A DNA stretch of 32,577 nt from a virus. The stretch's first letter is position 1; each line of letters opens with the position of its first letter. The stretch is from positions 1 through 32,577 of IMG/VR virus record IMGVR_UViG_3300045988_176838. One strand, written 5' to 3'. Shown piece after piece: positions 1 to 32,577 of this stretch. The notes under the pieces were generated by a model. The model had not been told where the DNA came from, made no database searches, and saw only the letters and a program-made list of their open reading frames with translations. Both the position numbers and the translations under genes were made by a program.

Positions 1-55
1 GGAAGTTTAGCTGATGTTTACGCTAAGTTGAACGAAAAAGTTGATTTAACCACAA
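1..55. repeat. Terminal redundancy of the window, identical to 32523..32577. It marks a circular or circularly permuted assembly.
   Basis: Exact 55-nt identity between the window start and end. It lies inside the tail-fibre coding frame, so it is not a biological terminal repeat carrying regulatory sequence. Confidence 0.9.
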
Positions 56-1509
56 CGCAGCTTATTAACGGGCAAAAAATTTTTGTAGAGCCATTAGATA
101 TGCAAAAAGGGAGTAAGAGAGTTACTCTTAATTATGGCAACATTAAATACAATGATTTAACTTTTGCATTCCCTAAAGTAACAGGCGGTTTAGTAGTAGA
201 AGACCAAGTATTCTTAAAACCTAGTACTTCTGTGGAATTTTTATTAGTCGGCTTTGAACCTACAGGAAGTGGCACTCAAGTATCGGTTAAGTTAGGTAGT
301 AATTTAAGCTATGATAACGTAACTAAAACATTAAATGCTGAAGGTGGCGGCTCTGACTTACCTGGTTATATACAATTTCCAACTGGAGATATAGAAAGGG
401 CTAGCTATACAAAAGGTGTATATGAATATTTAGCAGTTTTTGAAATGTTTGACACACTAGACGGAACTAAACTAAATGAAGGCGAAATGACCTTTATGTT
501 GCCTATAAAAGCTGGTAATTACTTAGCAGTAGATCTTGATAGTGATAATAAAACACTGAAAGTTGCTTTAGATGATACAAAAATTGATAAAACACCTACT
601 AAAGATAGTACAAATCTTATTACCAGCGGTGCGGTATATAACATTCCTAAACCAGTTATAATTTCTTTTGAATATGCGGACAGCACAATTCTTACTGATG
701 AGCAAATAGCACAAATAAAGAATAATGATATAGTTGTACTAAAAATTTCAGACACTGACGTTAACGAAACAAATATTTGCTATAAAATGTATAATTACAG
801 CACTTATTATGTGTTCATTGGTAAACAAACCGAAGATGAAGTCGGCACAATATGCTATGTAGTAGTAAACACAACTACTAAGACTGCTCAGTGGAATAGT
901 TATACCTTGCTTTCACAAGAAGATTTCAGCGACGATTTCTCTTATGCTAGTGGGCAAATGTATTTGAGCAACGCTATTAAGACTGCTATAAATAATTCTC
1001 TAAAGCTAGAAAGTAATATTCCTGAAGAATTTGAATTAGTAGGTATAAATCACAAGAATTATCAAGAAAACATTACTCTTGGTGATAATCTTAGTTATGA
1101 CGCAATTACTAAGAAACTTAACGCTTCTGGTGGTGGTGTTCCAATACTAGAAGAATTACCTACAGAAGTTACAGACAATACACCTAAAGTCTTTTATTGT
1201 AAAAATGAATTATATATAGTACAAGAAATCATTGTTAGTGGAAACAAACTAATGCTAGCTAATGCAGTTAGCAATAAAGTTAATAATTCGCTACAAGTGC
1301 CTGCAACGGCTCCTACAGCAACGGAATTAGTCGGCATAACAACTAATAAAGCCCAGGTCAATATCGAGCTAGAAGATAGCTTAGAATTAGTTAACGGGCA
1401 TTTAGGCGTAAAGAACAAGATAGTATCACTTACACAAAACGAGTATGACGCTCTTACTACAAAAGATAGCAATACTTTATATGTAATTGTAGAGGGGGGG
1501 GCGGAGTAG
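1..1509 (+). CDS. Tail fibre protein, C-terminal part. The frame is open from nt 1; the ORF track lists 28..1509 from an internal Met.
   Basis: The frame is continuous with 31608..32577 through the 55-nt terminal overlap. The region holds two copies of an internal repeat, LG(S/D)NLSYD(N/A)(V/I)TK(T/K)LNA(E/S)GGG, and ends VEGGAE* inside a G8 tract. Confidence 0.75.
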   Translation, partial: GSLADVYAKLNEKVDLTTTQLINGQKIFVEPLDMQKGSKRVTLNYGNIKYNDLTFAFPKVTGGLVVEDQVFLKPSTSVEFLLVGFEPTGSGTQVSVKLGSNLSYDNVTKTLNAEGGGSDLPGYIQFPTGDIERASYTKGVYEYLAVFEMFDTLDGTKLNEGEMTFMLPIKAGNYLAVDLDSDNKTLKVALDDTKIDKTPTKDSTNLITSGAVYNIPKPVIISFEYADSTILTDEQIAQIKNNDIVVLKISDTDVNETNICYKMYNYSTYYVFIGKQTEDEVGTICYVVVNTTTKTAQWNSYTLLSQEDFSDDFSYASGQMYLSNAIKTAINNSLKLESNIPEEFELVGINHKNYQENITLGDNLSYDAITKKLNASGGGVPILEELPTEVTDNTPKVFYCKNELYIVQEIIVSGNKLMLANAVSNKVNNSLQVPATAPTATELVGITTNKAQVNIELEDSLELVNGHLGVKNKIVSLTQNEYDALTTKDSNTLYVIVEGGAE

Positions 1510-3082: not shown

Positions 3083-3193
3083 TTATTCGATGTCAAAATT
3101 ATTATCGTTTCTTAATTCACCTAATTTAGCTATTGCTTTTATCGCTTCCCATAAATACTTGACAAATAAATCATTGTTGTTTAATTGTTCCAT
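3083..3193 (-). CDS. Possible 36-aa small protein (MEQLNNNDLFVKYLWEAIKAIAKLGELRNDNNFDIE).
   Basis: The ATG is embedded in GAGAGGTAAAAGAATGG and overlaps the stop of the upstream ligase-like gene. It is below the ORF-track size cut-off. Confidence 0.2.
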   Translation of the reverse strand: MEQLNNNDLFVKYLWEAIKAIAKLGELRNDNNFDIE

Positions 3194-3822
3194 TCTTTTA
3201 CCTCTCTCCATTTACATTTACATTTAATAATATCACCATTTTTATCATATAATTTTGCAGCCAATGGCGAAAGTACTAAGCCTTCCATTTCGTGTGTACC
3301 ACCATTTAAGTATGAATTAGGATGTTGCTTTACATAGGTTATAGCTTCTTCTAGTGTACCATGGAACACAACATCTACCATAGAAAGACCAAGTTTTAAA
3401 GCAACATCGCTTATATTCACTAGTGATAATTCATTACCATCAACAGTTACATCAAAGACAATGAATTTTGGTGCTTCTGAATACAGCTCACCATTTTTTT
3501 GTATTTTTGCTCCATAACCTTCACCAAAGATATATGCTTCTTTATCGCCAAAGGTTTGTTCAAATAGGCTTTCCATTTCTGGTGTTAAAAACAAATCGGA
3601 CAAGTACTTATATAAGTGTGGTGGAATTTTCGCTTTATCAGTTCTACCAGCTATAGAAATTCTATAGCCGTCCCAATACACACGAATGTTTGTTCCATCT
3701 ACTTTTTCTGTGCCGACCCATTGAATGTCTTTTAAAGTCAAAAATGGCTCAGCTATTCTTATTGGCTTTCTTGTTAAGTTATCAAATTCAAATATATTTG
3801 GTATTTTTCTATAAGTTTTCAT
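3181..3822 (-). CDS. ATP-dependent RNA-ligase-like nucleotidyltransferase (Rnl2-type adenylyltransferase domain only, 213 aa).
   Basis: Motif I TEKVDGTN (KxDG), motif III FIVFDVTVDG, motif IV EGLVLSP and motif V KCKCKW appear in the canonical order. There is no OB or C-terminal domain. Confidence 0.55.
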   Translation of the reverse strand: MKTYRKIPNIFEFDNLTRKPIRIAEPFLTLKDIQWVGTEKVDGTNIRVYWDGYRISIAGRTDKAKIPPHLYKYLSDLFLTPEMESLFEQTFGDKEAYIFGEGYGAKIQKNGELYSEAPKFIVFDVTVDGNELSLVNISDVALKLGLSMVDVVFHGTLEEAITYVKQHPNSYLNGGTHEMEGLVLSPLAAKLYDKNGDIIKCKCKWREVKEWNN

Positions 3823-3968: not shown

Positions 3969-4400
3969 TTATTCATCTAGTCCAAGCTCCTTTAAGGAAT
4001 ATCTATGAAGTTTTTTCATATTTTTATACATTGAACCTTCAACAAAAACTGGCAAGTTTATATTCTCATCCAGTCCATTATCATATGATTTAACACAAAT
4101 TTGTATATATACCTCATTAAGGGCACATAAATTTGTATATTTAATAATATAACGTACTCTATTTTTAAAAGGTTTAATTACATTGCTTAAATATTCTTTT
4201 TCTTCTTTGGTTAGTATAGGCTCTTTATAGAGTTCCCATGTTCCATAATTTAAGTCAGTAATATTTATATTTTTTACGAAACATGGATCACTAAAGCAAA
4301 TAGCTTCATTATCTTCATATAGATATATTGCATCTTTCCACTTTGTATTTCTGACTTTATTTCCTTTTTCTAATTCTTTCATTGCTTCAAAAAAATTCAT
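3969..4400 (-). CDS. Hypothetical protein with a DUF2829-like N-terminus.
   Basis: MNFFEAMKELEKGNKVRNTKW…TDLNYGTWELYK resembles the pattern of the phage DUF2829 family (FGEALEALKxGKKVxRKGW…DWEI). Confidence 0.45.
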   Translation of the reverse strand: MNFFEAMKELEKGNKVRNTKWKDAIYLYEDNEAICFSDPCFVKNINITDLNYGTWELYKEPILTKEEKEYLSNVIKPFKNRVRYIIKYTNLCALNEVYIQICVKSYDNGLDENINLPVFVEGSMYKNMKKLHRYSLKELGLDE

Positions 4401-6227: not shown

Positions 6228-6463
6228 TTTTCCCCTTTCTTATACAGTCTTGTTACGTCTATATTTTCTTTACCTAGCAAATCGCGAATTTCGTACATTG
6301 TTAAATCGTAAATGCTATCTTTTGTTATGCTAATAACGTTTTCTAAGTCGATATAATCTTTACCAATTACATGGATCATATCTATATTTTCACATAAGAT
6401 TATTGGGTCAGTAGTTGTAATTTCTTTTTCTTTCCCCTTTTCTAAATATTTTATTCTAGTCAT
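6224..6463 (-). CDS. Hypothetical 79-aa protein.
   Basis: ORF. Confidence 0.35.
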   Translation of the reverse strand: MTRIKYLEKGKEKEITTTDPIILCENIDMIHVIGKDYIDLENVISITKDSIYDLTMYEIRDLLGKENIDVTRLYKKGEK

Positions 6464-8591
6464 TTTGCTTTATAATCCTCTTTCTTTTTTTGTAACACCC
6501 CATACAATATGGAATGTTCTCGTCGACATAATCATAACATATTGGTGTTTCTTTGCCTTCTATGTTCCTTTCTATGCGCCCTATAGCTTGTATTGTTACA
6601 CTTTCATTCTTTTGTGGACTTGCTAGGTGTAACGTATCGAGCGCTGGTATATCAAGTCCCTCTTTTGCTAAAGCGTATGTAGCAATAATAACGCTTGCGT
6701 CATAATTTCTATCTTTTTCTTTTACCTTTCCTACTAATATCGAAGTTTTCACTCCCCTTTCTTCCAACATTTTTGATAACATTTCACACTGCGCTACTCG
6801 ATGGCACAACACAAGCTGACTATGCGGTACACGTTCCACTATGTTATTTACTATTTCTTCATTTCTTTGTGTGTTGTCAGCTAACAAGCTAATCAATTTT
6901 GTATTATTGATAGTTCCATCGAAGTCGGTATAGTCCATAACGTTATATTCTTGACTAAGGAATATCGGTTTATATTCAGCGGTTATTCGCTTATCTTTTA
7001 CCGCTTCTTTAGGAATTTCATAAACAATATCACCAACTAATGCAAATAATGAAGGTATCATTCCATCCGTTCTTGTCAATGTAGCACTCATTCCGAATTT
7101 GTAACGGCAATTTATACTATTGATTACTTTGTAGAATTGCATTGCTTTTGTGGGAGAGCCTACTAAGTGGTGGCAATTATGAACTAAATAGTTATTAGCA
7201 AAATAATTATGATTATCTTCTACTTCAAGATTATAGACAGTACATTTTCTATATTGTTTAGTATCTCCGCATTTTTGAAGTGAAACACTTTCCAACCCAT
7301 AGAATTTAAGAACTCGCTTTTCTTTTTGTCTCTTTCTTGACCTAAGATTGAACGATGGCTGGCACCATCTATTTCTATTGCTATTTTGGCATTCGGTATT
7401 GCTAAATCTATTTTGTAGCAAGGTGGGTAGCCACTTCCTCTTGGCATTTTTGTTGGTATCACGTATTCTGGAATTACACGAATTTGCTTGTCTAATAATG
7501 CTAACTCTAATTTTATTTGTGGTAATGTTTCTCCCGTTCCATTTCCTCCTCTTTCTTTTGGCTTCCAATTCATTCCTTTTAATGTTTTTGAAACTTTTTT
7601 TCTTTTTTGAGGGTCTGACATTGGTTTTTTTTTCTTCATTCGTATTGAAGAAAGTTTGTAATAGCATTCTTGAGAACATGTTATTCTTGTTTTGCTTTTT
7701 ACTTCCTTTCCACACACAACGCAATATTTTGTCATTTTTGTTTATTTCCTCCGCTTTTACCCATCCTCTTTGCGTAAACCAAGGATGATTTGAAGTACAA
7801 TACGTATCGTTTATACACGTTACTTCTCTATCTTGATGTATCATTGTTTTTAAAACTTTTTTCCACTCAATTCTATGTGTGTTCTCGTTGTAGGAAGCGA
7901 CAATATCACCTTCTTTTATATCTTTTATTTGTTTGTTTCCTTTGTTAGTTTTAATAAGTGTTTCCCCTGCAAAACACTCGTCTACTACTACCACTGAAAA
8001 TTCGTTTTTGTATAATTGTGGATCTATTTTGCTCATCGTTTGCACGGTAGCGAATGTTATATCGCTTCCAATGTTTACTGCACCTTCTGTAATCGTTCCG
8101 AAATCGCCCTCGAAGTAGCTTTCGCATCTAGCTTTGCTTTGCTCTAGAAGTTTCTTTGTGTGCGTTAGCCATAACGCCTTACCGCCTAGCTCTTTTATAA
8201 GCTGCAATGCTATATTTGTCTTACCGCTACCGCAAGGAGCTTTTAAAACCCCATTCTTTGCTTTTTTAAGCACTTCTAAGGCTGGTTTTTGATATTCATA
8301 AAGATTTATACATCCGTGCATATGTGAAGCTATAAATGGTGCAAATTGCAAATCTATATCGATATGCTTATCTAGTCCCCATAAATGTCGAATGCAACCA
8401 AACGGAAGTATCAAGTCATTTCCGCTTTTTGCGTAAAGACTTAACTTAGGTTCAATGTTTCTTGAGTAAAGCCCCAGTCGTTGTGCGTTGATATAGTCGG
8501 GATTATCTATAACTAATTCTTTCTTGCAATAGTCTATAACTGCTTGTGTTGGCTGTTTTACACGAATACTATTACTAATAATTAATCGCAT
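6456..8591 (-). CDS. SF2 DExH-box helicase precursor (about 444-aa extein) interrupted by a 267-aa intein in motif II.
   Basis: Motif I APCGSGKT. Motif II VVVDE|C…HN|CHH reconstitutes DECH after intein removal. Helicase motifs follow downstream (SAT-like MSATLT and others). Confidence 0.75.
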   Translation of the reverse strand: MRLIISNSIRVKQPTQAVIDYCKKELVIDNPDYINAQRLGLYSRNIEPKLSLYAKSGNDLILPFGCIRHLWGLDKHIDIDLQFAPFIASHMHGCINLYEYQKPALEVLKKAKNGVLKAPCGSGKTNIALQLIKELGGKALWLTHTKKLLEQSKARCESYFEGDFGTITEGAVNIGSDITFATVQTMSKIDPQLYKNEFSVVVVDECFAGETLIKTNKGNKQIKDIKEGDIVASYNENTHRIEWKKVLKTMIHQDREVTCINDTYCTSNHPWFTQRGWVKAEEINKNDKILRCVWKGSKKQNKNNMFSRMLLQTFFNTNEEKKTNVRPSKKKKSFKNIKRNELEAKRKRRKWNGRNITTNKIRVSIIRQANSCNSRIRDTNKNAKRKWLPTLLQNRFSNTECQNSNRNRWCQPSFNLRSRKRQKEKRVLKFYGLESVSLQKCGDTKQYRKCTVYNLEVEDNHNYFANNYLVHNCHHLVGSPTKAMQFYKVINSINCRYKFGMSATLTRTDGMIPSLFALVGDIVYEIPKEAVKDKRITAEYKPIFLSQEYNVMDYTDFDGTINNTKLISLLADNTQRNEEIVNNIVERVPHSQLVLCHRVAQCEMLSKMLEERGVKTSILVGKVKEKDRNYDASVIIATYALAKEGLDIPALDTLHLASPQKNESVTIQAIGRIERNIEGKETPICYDYVDENIPYCMGCYKKRKRIIKQND
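7176..7976 (-). other. Intein, corresponding to host residues 206-472.
   Basis: Block A CFAGETLI, block B TSNHPWFT, block F VYNLEVEDNHNYFANN and block G LVHN followed by extein Cys. The central roughly 140 residues in the host frame are a low-complexity K/R/N-rich linker. Confidence 0.7.
7220..7735 (-). CDS. Nested free-standing homing-endonuclease-like gene (zinc ribbon plus DUF559/Vsr-like endonuclease domain, 171 aa), encoded out of frame inside the intein.
   Basis: Its own SD GGAGGAAA lies 12 nt upstream of the ATG. It has an N-terminal CVVCGKEV…CSQEC zinc ribbon. The C-terminal region reads GYPPCYKIDLAIPNAKIAIEIDGASH…RDKKKSEFLNSMGWKVFHFKNAEILNNIENVLSIIL, typical of DUF559. Its last roughly 75 nt are dual-coded with the intein C-terminal region LESVSLQKCGDTKQYRKCTVYNLEVE. 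Confidence 0.65.
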   Translation of the reverse strand: MTKYCVVCGKEVKSKTRITCSQECYYKLSSIRMKKKKPMSDPQKRKKVSKTLKGMNWKPKERGGNGTGETLPQIKLELALLDKQIRVIPEYVIPTKMPRGSGYPPCYKIDLAIPNAKIAIEIDGASHRSILGQERDKKKSEFLNSMGWKVFHFKNAEILNNIENVLSIILK

Positions 8592-13398: not shown

Positions 13399-13530
13399 CT
13401 ATTCTACAGCTCTTTTTATCTCTTCTATAATTTCATCAGTTGTCCATTTTTTGCCTTCAAAATTTTGGCCTTTATATGTTGCATAGTCGACAAAGTGTCC
13501 GTAGTCCCAGCCAATATAGTACTTTTTCAT
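13399..13530 (-). CDS. Possible 43-aa protein (MKKYYIGWDYGHFVDYATYKGQNFEGKKWTTDEIIEEIKRAVE).
   Basis: It fills the gap between the HTH gene and the ATPase. It is below the track cut-off and has a weak RBS. Confidence 0.2.
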   Translation of the reverse strand: MKKYYIGWDYGHFVDYATYKGQNFEGKKWTTDEIIEEIKRAVE

Positions 13531-13593
13531 TTTCTCTTCATTATTCATCGAGTTCATTTGGTGTGTTAAACGTTTTTGTTTTCATTTTTCTTT

Positions 13594-13824
13594 CTATTCT
13601 CCGATCCAATCTTCTTTAAAACGTAATAAATCTTGTGGCTCAATTTTTAAAGCTTTAGCAATTTTGTAAAGCGTTCTCCAACTAACATGTGGTACTTTTC
13701 CTTTTTCAATATTACACAATGTAGCTATTGAGATATGTGCTTTAGTCGATAACTGCTCTAAAGTCCAATCTTGCTCAACTCGCAAGTGTTTAATATGTAA
13801 ACCAAGTTCTTGCTCTGTTGTCAT
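13594..13824 (-). CDS. XRE-family HTH transcriptional regulator (Cro-like).
   Basis: The HTH reads WTLEQLSTKAHISIATLCNIEKGK. It has a strong RBS (AAGGGGGTG) and a candidate promoter TTGATA-N16-TATAGA upstream at about 13870..13900 on the minus strand. Confidence 0.75.
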   Translation of the reverse strand: MTTEQELGLHIKHLRVEQDWTLEQLSTKAHISIATLCNIEKGKVPHVSWRTLYKIAKALKIEPQDLLRFKEDWIGE

Positions 13825-13921
13825 TTTTCACCCCCTTTCTATCGAAAAACAATTTTAATGTTTTTCTCTATAATAGCGCTTGTCTCGCTATCAAATACCC
13901 CCCTAGGTGCTTTCTATTTTA

Positions 13922-14649
13922 TTATATTCTTTTATCATTGTCAATAAAAAAGTTTAACTTTTCTATTGTGTTAAAAATTTCTTCTAAAACTGAAACAACA
14001 ATACTATTACCTGCCATTTTATATAGCAGTGTTCTTGGCATATAGCTAACTTTTTCGTATACGGAGCTTTTATACCTTGTTCAATAAAAATTTAGATTTT
14101 TTAAATATTTCACGCCTTGAAAAAGTTTCTACGTCTTTCACATAAGGTGAAGAGATCATAAAAAGCCTTTTTCTATTTTGAGGTATGCCAAAATTTAAAG
14201 AATTTAAAATAAATATTTGATTAAAATAACCCATTTCCTCTAATTTTTTTTGCCAAATTTCAAAAAGCGGTGCAAATTTTGGAGATAAAAGAGTTGCAAC
14301 ATTTTCAAGTAGCAAAAATTTAGGCTTTTCTTCCATTTCTTCCATTTCTTCCAAAATTCGCCCAACTTCCCAAAGTAGCCCAGATCTAGTGCCTTTTTCT
14401 AACCCTTTTTGCTTTCCGCTCATTGATAAATCTTGACATGGAAAAGAATAAGTAAGAATATCTATATTTTTTGGCATATCTTGTCCTCGAATTTTAGTGA
14501 TGTCTCCATAATTTTTAGCCCCGTTATTGTGGCTTTTATAGTATGCTTCAAAAATTTTGCTATCAATTTCAGAACCCCCCCATCACCTCTCCTTTTTTCA
14601 GAGCTTTTGCTTGCGCCCCAATTTCTGCGAACATTTCAAAAAGTCTCAT
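13922..14649 (-). pseudogene. Decayed HhaI-like C5-cytosine methyltransferase with a degenerate motif I, a frameshift in a G7 tract, a deleted TRD and motif IX, and motif X retained in another frame.
   Basis: The N-terminus MRLFEMFAEIGAQAKAL (ATG 14649, SD GGGGGAG) corresponds to motif I with both glycines replaced. A stop follows the G7 tract at 14575..14581, and G6 would restore the frame. ORF 14070..14477 carries PCQ (SFPCQDLSMSGKQKG), ENV and QNRKRLF, then ends. A third frame at 14080..13922 encodes …SVYEKVSYMPRTLLYKMAGNSIVVSVLEEIF (motif X). About 95 aa are missing between motif VIII and motif X. Confidence 0.7.
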
Positions 14650-14688
14650 TTTTTCTCCCCCTTCATTTTATTATTTTTTATTATCGTT

Positions 14689-15048
14689 TTAGTTTAGCCA
14701 ACGTAATATTGGTTCGGTTTTTGAGCCTTTGAGCCAGACAAACCAGGCATAAGCGACCGCAGGCCCCCCCACAGGCTTTGAAATTCCATTTTTAAAGCAT
14801 GCAAAACAAATTCGAGCACCTTTAAAAAAGTCTTTTACTTCTCCATACCCTCGCGGGACCAGGTCGGAAGATTTTACGCAATAATGGACTTGTTTTAGCG
14901 TTTCAGAAATCGCACCACCGCCACAAGCAGGTTCTAAAATATTAGTGTTGAATTTTTCGACAGCCAAAAGCGCTCGAACACTGTCGGGATCTGTGCTGTA
15001 ATAGTCCAGCTCTGCTCTCTCTTCTTTCTTATGTCTTATATTATACAT
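14689..15048 (-). CDS. Truncated gamma-class N6-adenine methyltransferase fragment carrying motifs X, I, II and III only.
   Basis: STDPDSVRALLAV…ILEPACGGGAI matches the M.TaqI-type motif X and motif I. There is no (N/D)PPY motif in any frame. A G7 tract lies within the coding sequence at 14764..14770, and the RBS itself is GAGGGGGGG at 15060..15068. Confidence 0.45.
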   Translation of the reverse strand: MYNIRHKKEERAELDYYSTDPDSVRALLAVEKFNTNILEPACGGGAISETLKQVHYCVKSSDLVPRGYGEVKDFFKGARICFACFKNGISKPVGGPAVAYAWFVWLKGSKTEPILRWLN

Positions 15049-15337
15049 CTAAAAAAATACCCCCCCTCTATGTGGTTTTTTTGTAATAAACATATGAATA
15101 AAAACTCATATATTTATTTTTAAAATACTAAAGCGGAAGCAATGCCTTCGCCTTATTGTTTATTATATCTGTTAAAATATTGATAGGCAAAATCTCTTAT
15201 TGTTGATTTAATTAATATTTCAGCTTGAAACAATGCTTGAGCTTGGACCTCCAACCAGCTCTCGCGGCTGTTTGGCTCTTTTTCCCCTCCTTTAGTTTTT
15301 CGATACTCGGAAGGGGTGTTTTTTCTCCTTTTAATTA

Positions 15338-15790
15338 TTAATCTATTTCTTTGTTCCAATCTTTCCAATGGTTTTTATACCCTCGGCGCTCGAGTTCATA
15401 TTGACCATCAATTATATTATTGTAAATGCCGCTTAAAAAAAGCGCTGCTATATTATATGTTTTTGCCGCTTCTTTTTCGCTTTTAAAGCCGTCGACTTGC
15501 CACCATTCGCGCGCGAGATAGTCCCCCCCTGTATAGTTTCTAAAAAAATAATTAATCAGATATAAGCGGTTCGGTTTTATTTCCCAATCATGAGCTCTTT
15601 CAAAACGTTTTTGAATAATGACATATGCCTGGCGCCAATCTTTCCGCATGTTCTTGCGGCAATGATAATTCAATTCAAAATCGACATGTAAAAGAATCGC
15701 CTCTCGCAATGTCAAAGTGCTTTCTTTTTTTGCTTGTTGCAATAAAATTTCTTGTGTAAGTTTTTTCATTTTTTTTACCTCCATTTTCAC
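15338..15790 (-). CDS. Hypothetical early protein, the first gene of the leftward block. The start is more likely the internal ATG at 15769, giving 143 aa.
   Basis: The track starts at a GTG. The ATG at 15769 has GGAGGT 9 nt upstream. A G7 tract lies inside the coding sequence at 15523..15529. Confidence 0.5.
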   Translation of the reverse strand: MKMEVKKMKKLTQEILLQQAKKESTLTLREAILLHVDFELNYHCRKNMRKDWRQAYVIIQKRFERAHDWEIKPNRLYLINYFFRNYTGGDYLAREWWQVDGFKSEKEAAKTYNIAALFLSGIYNNIIDGQYELERRGYKNHWKDWNKEID

Positions 15791-31607: not shown

Positions 31608-32577
31608 ATGGCAATGTATGTATATTTTGATAAAAATGGCGTTTTGCAAGAAATAGTGCAAGATAAATCGGTTAGAGTCGGAGACTACAAAGCTAATAGA
31701 ATTTATATGTATTTTGACACTTCAGCTACTATTTCTGATGTGTGGTTTATAATGCAAAGCCCTGATGGCGTTTTATCTACTGAAGTTTCTATTAAAGATA
31801 ATCAAATAGATCTTTCTATTCCTTATCAAAAAAATAGAGATTTACACTTCTTCCAGGACTACCAAACATATCATTTTTATTACTATGATTTAGATAGCGT
31901 AGAAGTACAATATAGCGGTTTGGCGTATGCCACTGTCAGAGCCAATGTAGACAACTCTTTATATGCACAAGGGCTTATTACCTTTAACGTAGAAAGCAAC
32001 GTTATAAAGCTCGATAACGGCATTACACAAAGCCAATATGATTATTTGCTTGTTACTTATTCTAAGACTAAAGAGCTTACCGAAGAATTGCAAGCAAAAG
32101 TCAATGAATTAGAAGCTAATCTCAACGCTGAAATTGAACGTGCTACAAATGAGGAAACTACGCTCAATACAAAAATCAGCAATGAAATTACTAGAGCACA
32201 ACAAGTAGAAAGCTCTATTAATCAAGCTCTTAATACACATATTGATAATAAGGAAAACCCTCATAGCGTTACAAAAGAACAAATAGGCTTAGGCAACGTA
32301 GATAATACAAGCGACTTAGACAAGCCTATGTCTACAGCAACTAAAGACTATATAGATACAAAAGTAAGCGGAGCTATGGTATATCGTGGCTCAGTACAAA
32401 AGTTTAGCGATTTGCCTACTGACGCACAAAATGGCGATGTTTATAATGTAGTAAAAGCTTACTTAGCTTACCCACCTAATACAAACTATGCTTGGAACGG
32501 CACGAGTTGGGACCCTTTAGGAGGAAGTTTAGCTGATGTTTACGCTAAGTTGAACGAAAAAGTTGATTTAACCACAA
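31608..32577 (+). CDS. Tail fibre / receptor-binding protein, N-terminal 323 codons. The gene wraps across the window end and continues in frame at nt 1..1509, giving 808 aa in the circular genome.
   Basis: ATG at 31608 preceded by GGAGCACGAATAAAAT. My own translation runs open to the window end (…GGSLADVYAKLNEKVDLTT), identical to the translation from nt 1. It contains a coiled-coil segment and the motif NPHSVTKEQIGLGNVDNTSD that is common in phage fibre proteins. It is absent from the ORF track because no stop falls inside the window. Confidence 0.75.
   Translation, partial: MAMYVYFDKNGVLQEIVQDKSVRVGDYKANRIYMYFDTSATISDVWFIMQSPDGVLSTEVSIKDNQIDLSIPYQKNRDLHFFQDYQTYHFYYYDLDSVEVQYSGLAYATVRANVDNSLYAQGLITFNVESNVIKLDNGITQSQYDYLLVTYSKTKELTEELQAKVNELEANLNAEIERATNEETTLNTKISNEITRAQQVESSINQALNTHIDNKENPHSVTKEQIGLGNVDNTSDLDKPMSTATKDYIDTKVSGAMVYRGSVQKFSDLPTDAQNGDVYNVVKAYLAYPPNTNYAWNGTSWDPLGGSLADVYAKLNEKVDLTT
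32523..32577. repeat. Second copy of the 55-nt terminal overlap.
   Basis: Identical to 1..55. Confidence 0.9.

Follow-up and report, generated by a model that had tools for sequence, protein, structure and literature searches.

On the window, meaning the whole 32,577-nt stretch of DNA that was analysed, a minus-strand locus (termed gene C) was identified that is very probably a pseudogene, no longer functional, of an orphan phage C5 methyltransferase of the HhaI/MpeI type, decayed by five disabling lesions. The original prediction had offered an inactivated anti-restriction methylase as one of its readings of this locus, and this is borne out by the intact 324-aa orthologues that occupy the same slot in related genomes together with the five disabling lesions of the window copy, the anti-restriction role itself being presumed. 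The remnant is an ordinary pseudogene, and the repeated breakage of the gene across its clade is the most interesting part of the finding.

A direct repeat of 55 nt was found at the termini of the window (1..55 and 32523..32577), indicating a circular assembly of a genome of 32,522 bp. Two human-gut metagenome contigs (32,649 bp and 32,641 bp) were 100% identical to the window over the 10-13 kb compared and, along with the terminal repeat, identify it as the genome of an uncultured gut phage, complete and assembled as a circle. The GC content of this genome is 33%, and no tRNA genes were found on it. Megablast of positions 13500..15200 against GenBank phages gave no match, a protein search against phages returned identities of at most 50%, and the terminase shared at most 26% identity with that of any GenBank phage; these protein and terminase values indicate that there is no cultured relative. 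Scans of IMG/VR and of JGI metagenomes likewise recovered nothing close, identities reaching 47% and 38% at most, respectively. A scan of genome contigs located relatives of the capsid protein (at most 52% identity) in bins of metagenome-assembled genomes that carry the label Lachnospiraceae, Clostridia or 'bacterium'. An RNA ligase domain (PF09414, E 6.7e-14) was identified in a 213-aa ORF of the early region (3181..3822, minus strand).

Parts and lesions of the gene C remnant

The remnant, its residual ORFs and its changes in length relative to intact orthologues are as follows.

13922..14649, minus strand: gene C as a whole, a C5-cytosine DNA methyltransferase pseudogene of 728 nt that begins with the ancestral ATG and ends with the ancestral TAA, with matches to Pfam PF00145 on both pieces
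14569..14649, minus strand: 26-aa ORF with the mutated motif I (FAEIGA), the sole translation from the ancestral start
14070..14477, minus strand: residual internal 135-aa ORF with motif IV (FPCQ), motif VI (ENV), motif VIII (QNRKR) and a surviving island of target-recognition-domain sequence
13922..14041, minus strand: 39-aa ORF with motif X (AGNSIVV), out of frame relative to the upstream piece; homology to the intact gene starts at 14059
14575..14581, minus strand: G7 run, net +1 frameshift (G7TT, 9 nt, in the window against 8 nt in all ten relatives)
14345..14353, minus strand: 9-nt in-frame tandem duplication TGGAAGAAA, changing EEMEE to EEMEEMEE, its placement within the repeat being ambiguous
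14120..14126, minus strand: junction of an in-frame deletion of 111 nt that takes 37 codons from the target-recognition domain (reference nt 514-624), inside a 7-nt microhomology (ACTTTTT) present in two copies
14078..14079, minus strand: junction of a 91-nt frameshifting deletion (reference nt 673-763)
14059..14060, minus strand: junction of a 55-nt frameshifting deletion (reference nt 783-837), by which motif IX (RYLTPRECFLLMGF) is removed

Three residual ORFs of 26, 135 and 39 aa are thus left of gene C. The minus strand from 14649 to 14569 encodes MRLFEMFAEIGAQAKALKKGEVMGGF followed by a stop, and as translation from the original start ends after 26 codons, no methyltransferase can be made. 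With one G removed from the run (G6), the N-terminal 192 aa match positions 1-161 of the 324 positions of PF00145 (E 3.8e-46), and the 39-aa ORF matches positions 299-324. Descent from this family is further reflected in a nucleotide identity of 93-98% to intact orthologues in the same syntenic slot. The collinear arrangement of HhaI-like C5 methyltransferase motifs on the minus strand that had been described from the sequence was recovered in full, with FAEIGA, FPCQ, ENV, QNRKR and AGNSIVV all being located, and the pieces of the gene, their order and their frame breaks are real and far beyond chance.

Like C5 methyltransferases of the M.HhaI and M.MpeI type (PF00145; PDB 10mh, 4dkj), the remnant has motifs IV, VI, VIII and X arranged in canonical order, and the P-C-Q of motif IV with its catalytic cysteine, LLENV and QNRKR were all found in the 135-aa ORF. 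This ORF is devoid of the AdoMet-binding motifs I-III and of motifs IX and X and has lost most of the target-recognition domain, and the window copy as a whole differs from enzymes of this type in possessing a mutated motif I in place of F-x-G-x-G, a target-recognition domain that is mostly deleted, no motif IX and no single frame running from motif I to motif X, the last of these being out of frame. It is a descendant of such enzymes and not a working member.

Lesions were resolved by DNA alignment to five and then nine relatives, using the intact 975-nt orthologues as reference, and the length of the remnant was fully accounted for by the events identified (975 - 257 + 10 = 728 nt). Motif I carries a Gly9Glu substitution (GGA>GAA, base 14624) that converts FAGIGA to FAEIGA. 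Among ten relatives the motif reads FAGIGA, or FARIGA in one, with codon 9 being GGA in nine and AGA in genome L034, so that the earlier description of motif I as degenerate holds. The frame was also correctly said to break within the homopolymer, the run being exactly G7 and the frame being lost there. At this position relatives possess G5TTT, G5TCT or G4TTTT, and among the 11 genomes only the window differs in the length of this block.

Alignment to intact homologues did not uphold a single clean deletion of about 95 aa. Three separate deletions (111, 91 and 55 nt) were found instead, amounting to 257 nt or about 86 codons and separated by two retained islands (14079..14124 and 14060..14078). 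The predicted loss of motif IX was complete, as read for the 55-nt deletion from alignments to relatives, but that of the target-recognition domain was only partial: most of it is gone, with the two islands kept, and SRREIFKKSKFLLN following motif VIII is retained target-recognition-domain sequence. The left edge of the 91-nt deletion abuts the second G-run of gene C (G5-G8 in relatives), which has been removed. Three frame breaks therefore exist, namely the +1 at 14575..14581 and the 91-nt and 55-nt deletions, and the motif-X segment (ORF 13922..14041) does lie in a different frame from the piece preceding it, as originally proposed. The 9-nt duplication had been missed by the original prediction; the intact 327-aa allele P0122/L041 also carries it, and it is therefore a harmless polymorphism and not a lesion.

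Ten synonymous and six non-synonymous substitutions were unique to the window within the remnant, against 8/4 and 4/5 in intact relatives. On these few changes, the window copy is not clearly more relaxed than intact genes, which implies that the decay is recent; the substitution data alone do not prove a loss of constraint, being too sparse to demonstrate either relaxed or purifying selection. An alternative genetic code with TGA read as Trp was also considered and rejected, as the frame following G7 additionally meets a TAG and intact relatives read normally in table 11.

Intact orthologues and the methylase cassette

A search of 5.8 billion proteins with the G6-repaired N-terminal half as query, still carrying the 111-nt deletion, identified intact orthologues of 324 aa with identities of 78% (P0001 and P0002) and 68% (P0004), aligned almost to the end of the query. 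These are encoded on contigs of 35-37 kb with the gene order of the window, in which the terminase side is followed by methylase genes, an ORF of 88-98 aa, a 76-aa Cro-like HTH gene, three small genes, AAA_24, DUF669, primase and helicase. P0002 was found to align over its full length to M.HhaI (E 1.7e-29), with its best match being PDB 4dkj/8c56 (E ~2e-45), and this full-length alignment to solved structures indicates that the ancestral gene was an ordinary C5 methyltransferase of single-domain architecture. As a separate observation, the DEAD/ResIII helicase (6456..8591 of the window, minus strand) is 711 aa long with PT-HINT/Intein_splicing matches in the window, L025 and L026, and 444 aa without such matches in L028/L029, which indicates presence and absence of an intein within the clade.

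Orphan phage methylases are textbook material, and methylases placed in the early region without an adjacent endonuclease represent their usual layout. The genomes of relatives show that the ancestral cassette consisted of three methylase genes, A, B and C. In L025, L026 and L028 no nuclease gene was found beside the cassette, and its genes are co-oriented with the HTH and replication genes. In this the clade resembles phage orphan anti-restriction methyltransferases (PHROG families 116, 799 and 67), with intact relatives having as many as three methylases, of differing classes, among their early genes and no endonuclease gene next to them. The window phage departs from these in that all three of its methylases have been destroyed, and the anti-restriction role is putative.

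Gene A, which is intact in L026 with 181 aa, belongs to phrog_799 (E 8e-63) and possesses the motifs EPACGGG and NPPY. Gene B (217 aa, PF01555/phrog_67) is of the N6/N4 type with the motif DPPY and is intact in L025 (9337..9990) and L034. The state of both genes in the window, and the deletions on the other side of gene C, are as follows.

14689..15048, minus strand: remnant of gene A, a 119-aa ORF with 47-nt and 139-nt deletions relative to relatives
14657..14661, minus strand: junction of a 667-nt deletion between two G-rich ribosome-binding regions, by which gene B is wholly removed
13898..13905, minus strand: junction of a 197/198-nt deletion between two copies of TAGGGGGG, removing most of the 88-98-aa ORF that lies between gene C and the HTH gene
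13541..13542, minus strand: junction of a 1113-1125-nt deletion relative to L025/L026, by which a 138-142-aa gene is lost entirely, a 174-aa gene for the most part and a 133-aa gene in its first part

The 47-nt deletion of gene A (junction 14820/14821) removes NPPY, while its 139-nt deletion lies between 13-nt repeats of ATGCTTTAAAAAT (14788..14800). A G7 run in gene A (14764..14770) is G7 in alleles that are in frame, with G8 in L025 and G6 in L030, both of which are frameshifted. The 1113-1125-nt deletion leaves a 52-aa ORF (13399..13557, minus strand) that matches the C-terminus of the 133-aa protein. In total, approximately eight deletions with a loss of about 2.4 kb were identified, all within a span of 1.3 kb (13541..14821), and this loss is close to the difference in size from the contig of L025 (34,964 bp). 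The flanks, by contrast with this span, are nearly free of indels: replication genes (8.3 kb) aligned at 97% and structural genes (7.5 kb) at 95%, and the few gaps measured 1-4 nt.

No (D/N/S)PP(Y/F/W/H) motif and no second PCQ motif was found among the ORFs of at least 80 aa in the window. With gene C dead, gene A devoid of NPPY, gene B deleted and no replacement motif identified, the phage appears from its sequence to encode no working DNA methyltransferase.

Several variations of the cassette were noted among relatives. A 1-nt loss within an A-run divides gene A of L025 (8749..9302) into 57 + 127 aa, and G8 near the 3' end shifts its frame once more; genes B and C of this genome are intact although gene A is broken, and the subset of methylases kept differs by genome. 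Gene B is reduced to a stub of 55-59 aa in L026 and L041, P0121 has this stub joined in frame to the C5 gene (381 aa), and L030 has the beginning of gene B joined to gene C (MIFEMFAGIG). Elsewhere on the window, a 143-aa ORF (3969..4400, minus strand) has 78% DNA identity to the 138-aa gene (L026 7388..7829) of the block that has been deleted, indicating that the window retains a paralogue of this gene elsewhere; its Tad2-like (anti-Thoeris) Pfam match is weak and below the cutoff (E 0.0026).

Repeated breakage of gene C and the question of selection

Alleles were tallied from a listing of the 90%-identity clusters around the orthologues, which were found to hold many members of odd length on contigs of near-genome length. 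Twenty alleles of gene C were resolved, 13 being full length and seven broken, with three more being fragments on short contigs that were not classified. Besides the window copy, the broken alleles are as follows.

L034: GGA>AGA (Gly9Arg, the codon altered in the window at another base), Ser68Phe, a +1 T insertion and loss of the target-recognition domain and motif IX in a single 250-nt deletion
L036: in-frame 48-nt deletion excising QDMPKNIDILTYSFPC with the catalytic cysteine
L039: stop codon in place of Gln72 of PCQ (CAA>TAA)
L040: two deletions, of 1 nt and 59 nt
L030: T5>T4
L031: 1-nt loss beside a G8 run

The seven broken alleles share no common lesion and no common set of residual ORFs, and the absence of a shared lesion indicates at least seven independent inactivations, that of the window included. 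Alleles within a subclade differ by only ~3%. Genes A and B are equally patchy across the clade, and L031, L036 and L040 possess no intact methylase. The six genomes that were fetched had been chosen partly for ORF lengths that looked abnormal.

A course of events may be proposed from these comparisons. The intact 324-aa enzyme of the early leftward operon presumably pre-methylates phage DNA against host restriction. In the host of this lineage the cassette would have become dispensable or harmful, either with the cognate restriction enzyme being absent or with methylation-dependent restriction being present, and it would then have been eroded by polymerase slippage and microhomology-mediated deletion. 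The pattern resembles the erosion of bacterial pseudogenes by deletional bias, with small deletions, some of which lie at microhomologies of 7-13 nt, accompanied by homopolymer frameshifts; it differs in occurring on a compact phage genome of 32.5 kb, the rest of which is nearly indel-free.

The loss may have been either neutral or positively selected. Methylation by the cassette may have sensitised the phage to Type IV restriction of the host, in which case a knock-out of all three genes would have been favoured and later lesions would have been neutral. This is possible, if on balance unlikely. It would account for all three methylases being dead in the window and none being intact in three of the relatives, for the number of independent inactivations (at least seven among 20 resolved alleles that differ by so little within a subclade), and for catalytic sites having been struck repeatedly, with Gly9 hit twice at different nucleotides and PCQ hit twice (the 48-nt in-frame deletion and Q72*). 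However, neither a host nor a Type IV system was identified, the fetched genomes were chosen in part by abnormal ORF length, and relaxed selection together with a high indel rate would look similar.

A broader reading is that the three-methylase cassette might be a disposable, fast-switching module in which G-tracts drive inactivation and the loss of methylation is selected under methylation-dependent restriction, with the window phage being an end state. It is advanced here with considerable doubt. G-tracts of 7-9 bases do occur in otherwise intact alleles (G7 in gene A, G7-G9 in gene B and up to G8 in the second run of gene C), and the pattern in favour of this reading is that of the at least seven independent knock-outs, with the motif-I glycine codon mutated in two ways and PCQ hit on two occasions.

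Residual ORFs, the G7 run and the 3' end

The original prediction had also entertained a domesticated fragment devoid of its target-recognition domain, in which the 135-aa ORF (motifs IV-VIII) or the 39-aa motif-X ORF would have acquired a new role, for example in DNA binding or as a decoy. The 135-aa ORF does persist with a possible ribosome-binding site, its internal fragment may be expressed judging from the sequence, and the remnant has not been wholly deleted despite larger deletions alongside. Such a role is nonetheless very unlikely. The truncated product is not conserved, the seven broken alleles differing in both lesions and residual ORFs: the architecture of the window was seen in no other genome, and other broken alleles leave 177+39, 229, 71+223, 144+103 or 308 aa. 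Furthermore, the fragment is without the AdoMet-binding half of the fold, and DNA alignment showed the plausible ribosome-binding site (GAGGA) to be merely ancestral coding sequence.

It is likewise very unlikely that the frameshift and deletions are errors of assembly or sequencing, or a collapsed mixture of variants. G-homopolymers are error-prone and the assemblies may all stem from the same reads, but three assemblies, for which a k of 55 was inferred from the terminal repeat and k values of 119 and 127 were read from the names of the contigs, agree at 100% identity over 10-13 kb, deletions with flanking homology of 0-13 nt cannot come from k-mer collapse, discrete events explain the length of the remnant fully, and the independent phage L034 has a comparable multi-lesion allele.

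The homopolymer had further been put forward as a slipped-strand switch, with G6 restoring the frame. Such tracts are known from phages: polyG tracts or contingency loci have been described for receptor-binding genes of Fletchervirus and for loci of T2/T4, and a polyG tract for the BPP-1 methylase gene (bioRxiv 10.1101/2025.10.21.683753). With contingency loci of phages and a methylase gene carrying a polyG tract already on record there, the remnant adds to known kinds. The clade resembles these systems in its G-homopolymers within phage genes, in the gene A tract that varies between G6, G7 and G8 among relatives, and in frameshifts beside G/T runs in gene C alleles. It differs from them in that the G7 of gene C is derived from a G5 site and the gene is inactivated by other lesions in any case. 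A G7 run is long enough to slip, and G/C runs of at least seven bases are ~30-fold more frequent in the window than expected (five observed, 0.15 expected), four of them lying in 14575..15529.

G6 would indeed rejoin the first two pieces, but it cannot revive the gene: the product keeps Gly9Glu, lacks most of the target-recognition domain and motif IX, and meets a stop after the 91-nt deletion, before motif X, which stays out of frame. Nor did comparison of other isolates for G6, G7 or G8 at 14575..14581 reveal a switching tract, as ten relatives possess G4-G5 within a block of G and T that is constant at 8 nt, intact alleles included, G7 occurs in the window alone, and the ancestral state was G5TTT or G4TTTT and not G6. 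As intact alleles carry G4-G5 and the product of a G6 allele would still be dead, the G7 run is a derived lesion and not an evolved switch, and phase variation of the methylase by toggling between G6 and G7 can be dismissed as next to impossible.

Further G7-G8 runs on the coding strand were observed at 1494..1501 (plus strand), where a 493-aa tail-tip ORF ends and the following one starts; at 15060..15066 (minus strand), in the ribosome-binding site of gene A; and at 15523..15529 (minus strand), encoding Gly-Gly within an intact 150-aa ORF.

The 3' end of gene C was found to behave differently from the rest of the gene, and two features were identified there.

13916..13944, minus strand: sigma-70-like sequence TTGACA-17-TAAAAT (11/12 matches) within the 3' end of the remnant, conserved in all relatives
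13942..13968, no strand assigned: near-perfect 13+13-nt palindrome with arms 92% complementary, abutting the -35 hexamer; a possible operator

This candidate promoter is followed by the Cro-like HTH gene (13594..13824, minus strand, 76 aa). The proposal that the promoter of that gene sits in the 3' end of gene C fits both the consensus match at 13944..13916 and its conservation, and the promoter is regarded as putative. A second palindrome, with 15-nt arms that are 80% complementary (13837..13873), is also a possible operator and flanks the promoter-like site together with that at 13942..13968, both being AT-rich. Between subclades, identity is 98-100% over the final 135 nt of gene C and 77-95% over the rest of it; no lesion was found beyond reference nt 849 in any genome, and all broken alleles keep the last ~126 nt or more. 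These last ~135 nt may have been kept for the promoter/operator region of the downstream Cro-like gene that they would hold, and a recombination boundary would produce the same conservation.

For annotation, the pseudogene reading means that the 135-aa ORF, labelled 'DNA (cytosine-5)-methyltransferase 1' by one source, cannot be an enzyme. The locus also provides a well-resolved case of a compact phage genome shedding an anti-restriction cassette by slippage and deletions, several of them at short repeats, with the losses being confined to accessory genes and recurring independently in sister lineages. If these losses were selected, the clade would represent a natural system for studying the trade-off between evasion of classical restriction and the triggering of methylation-dependent restriction in the gut.
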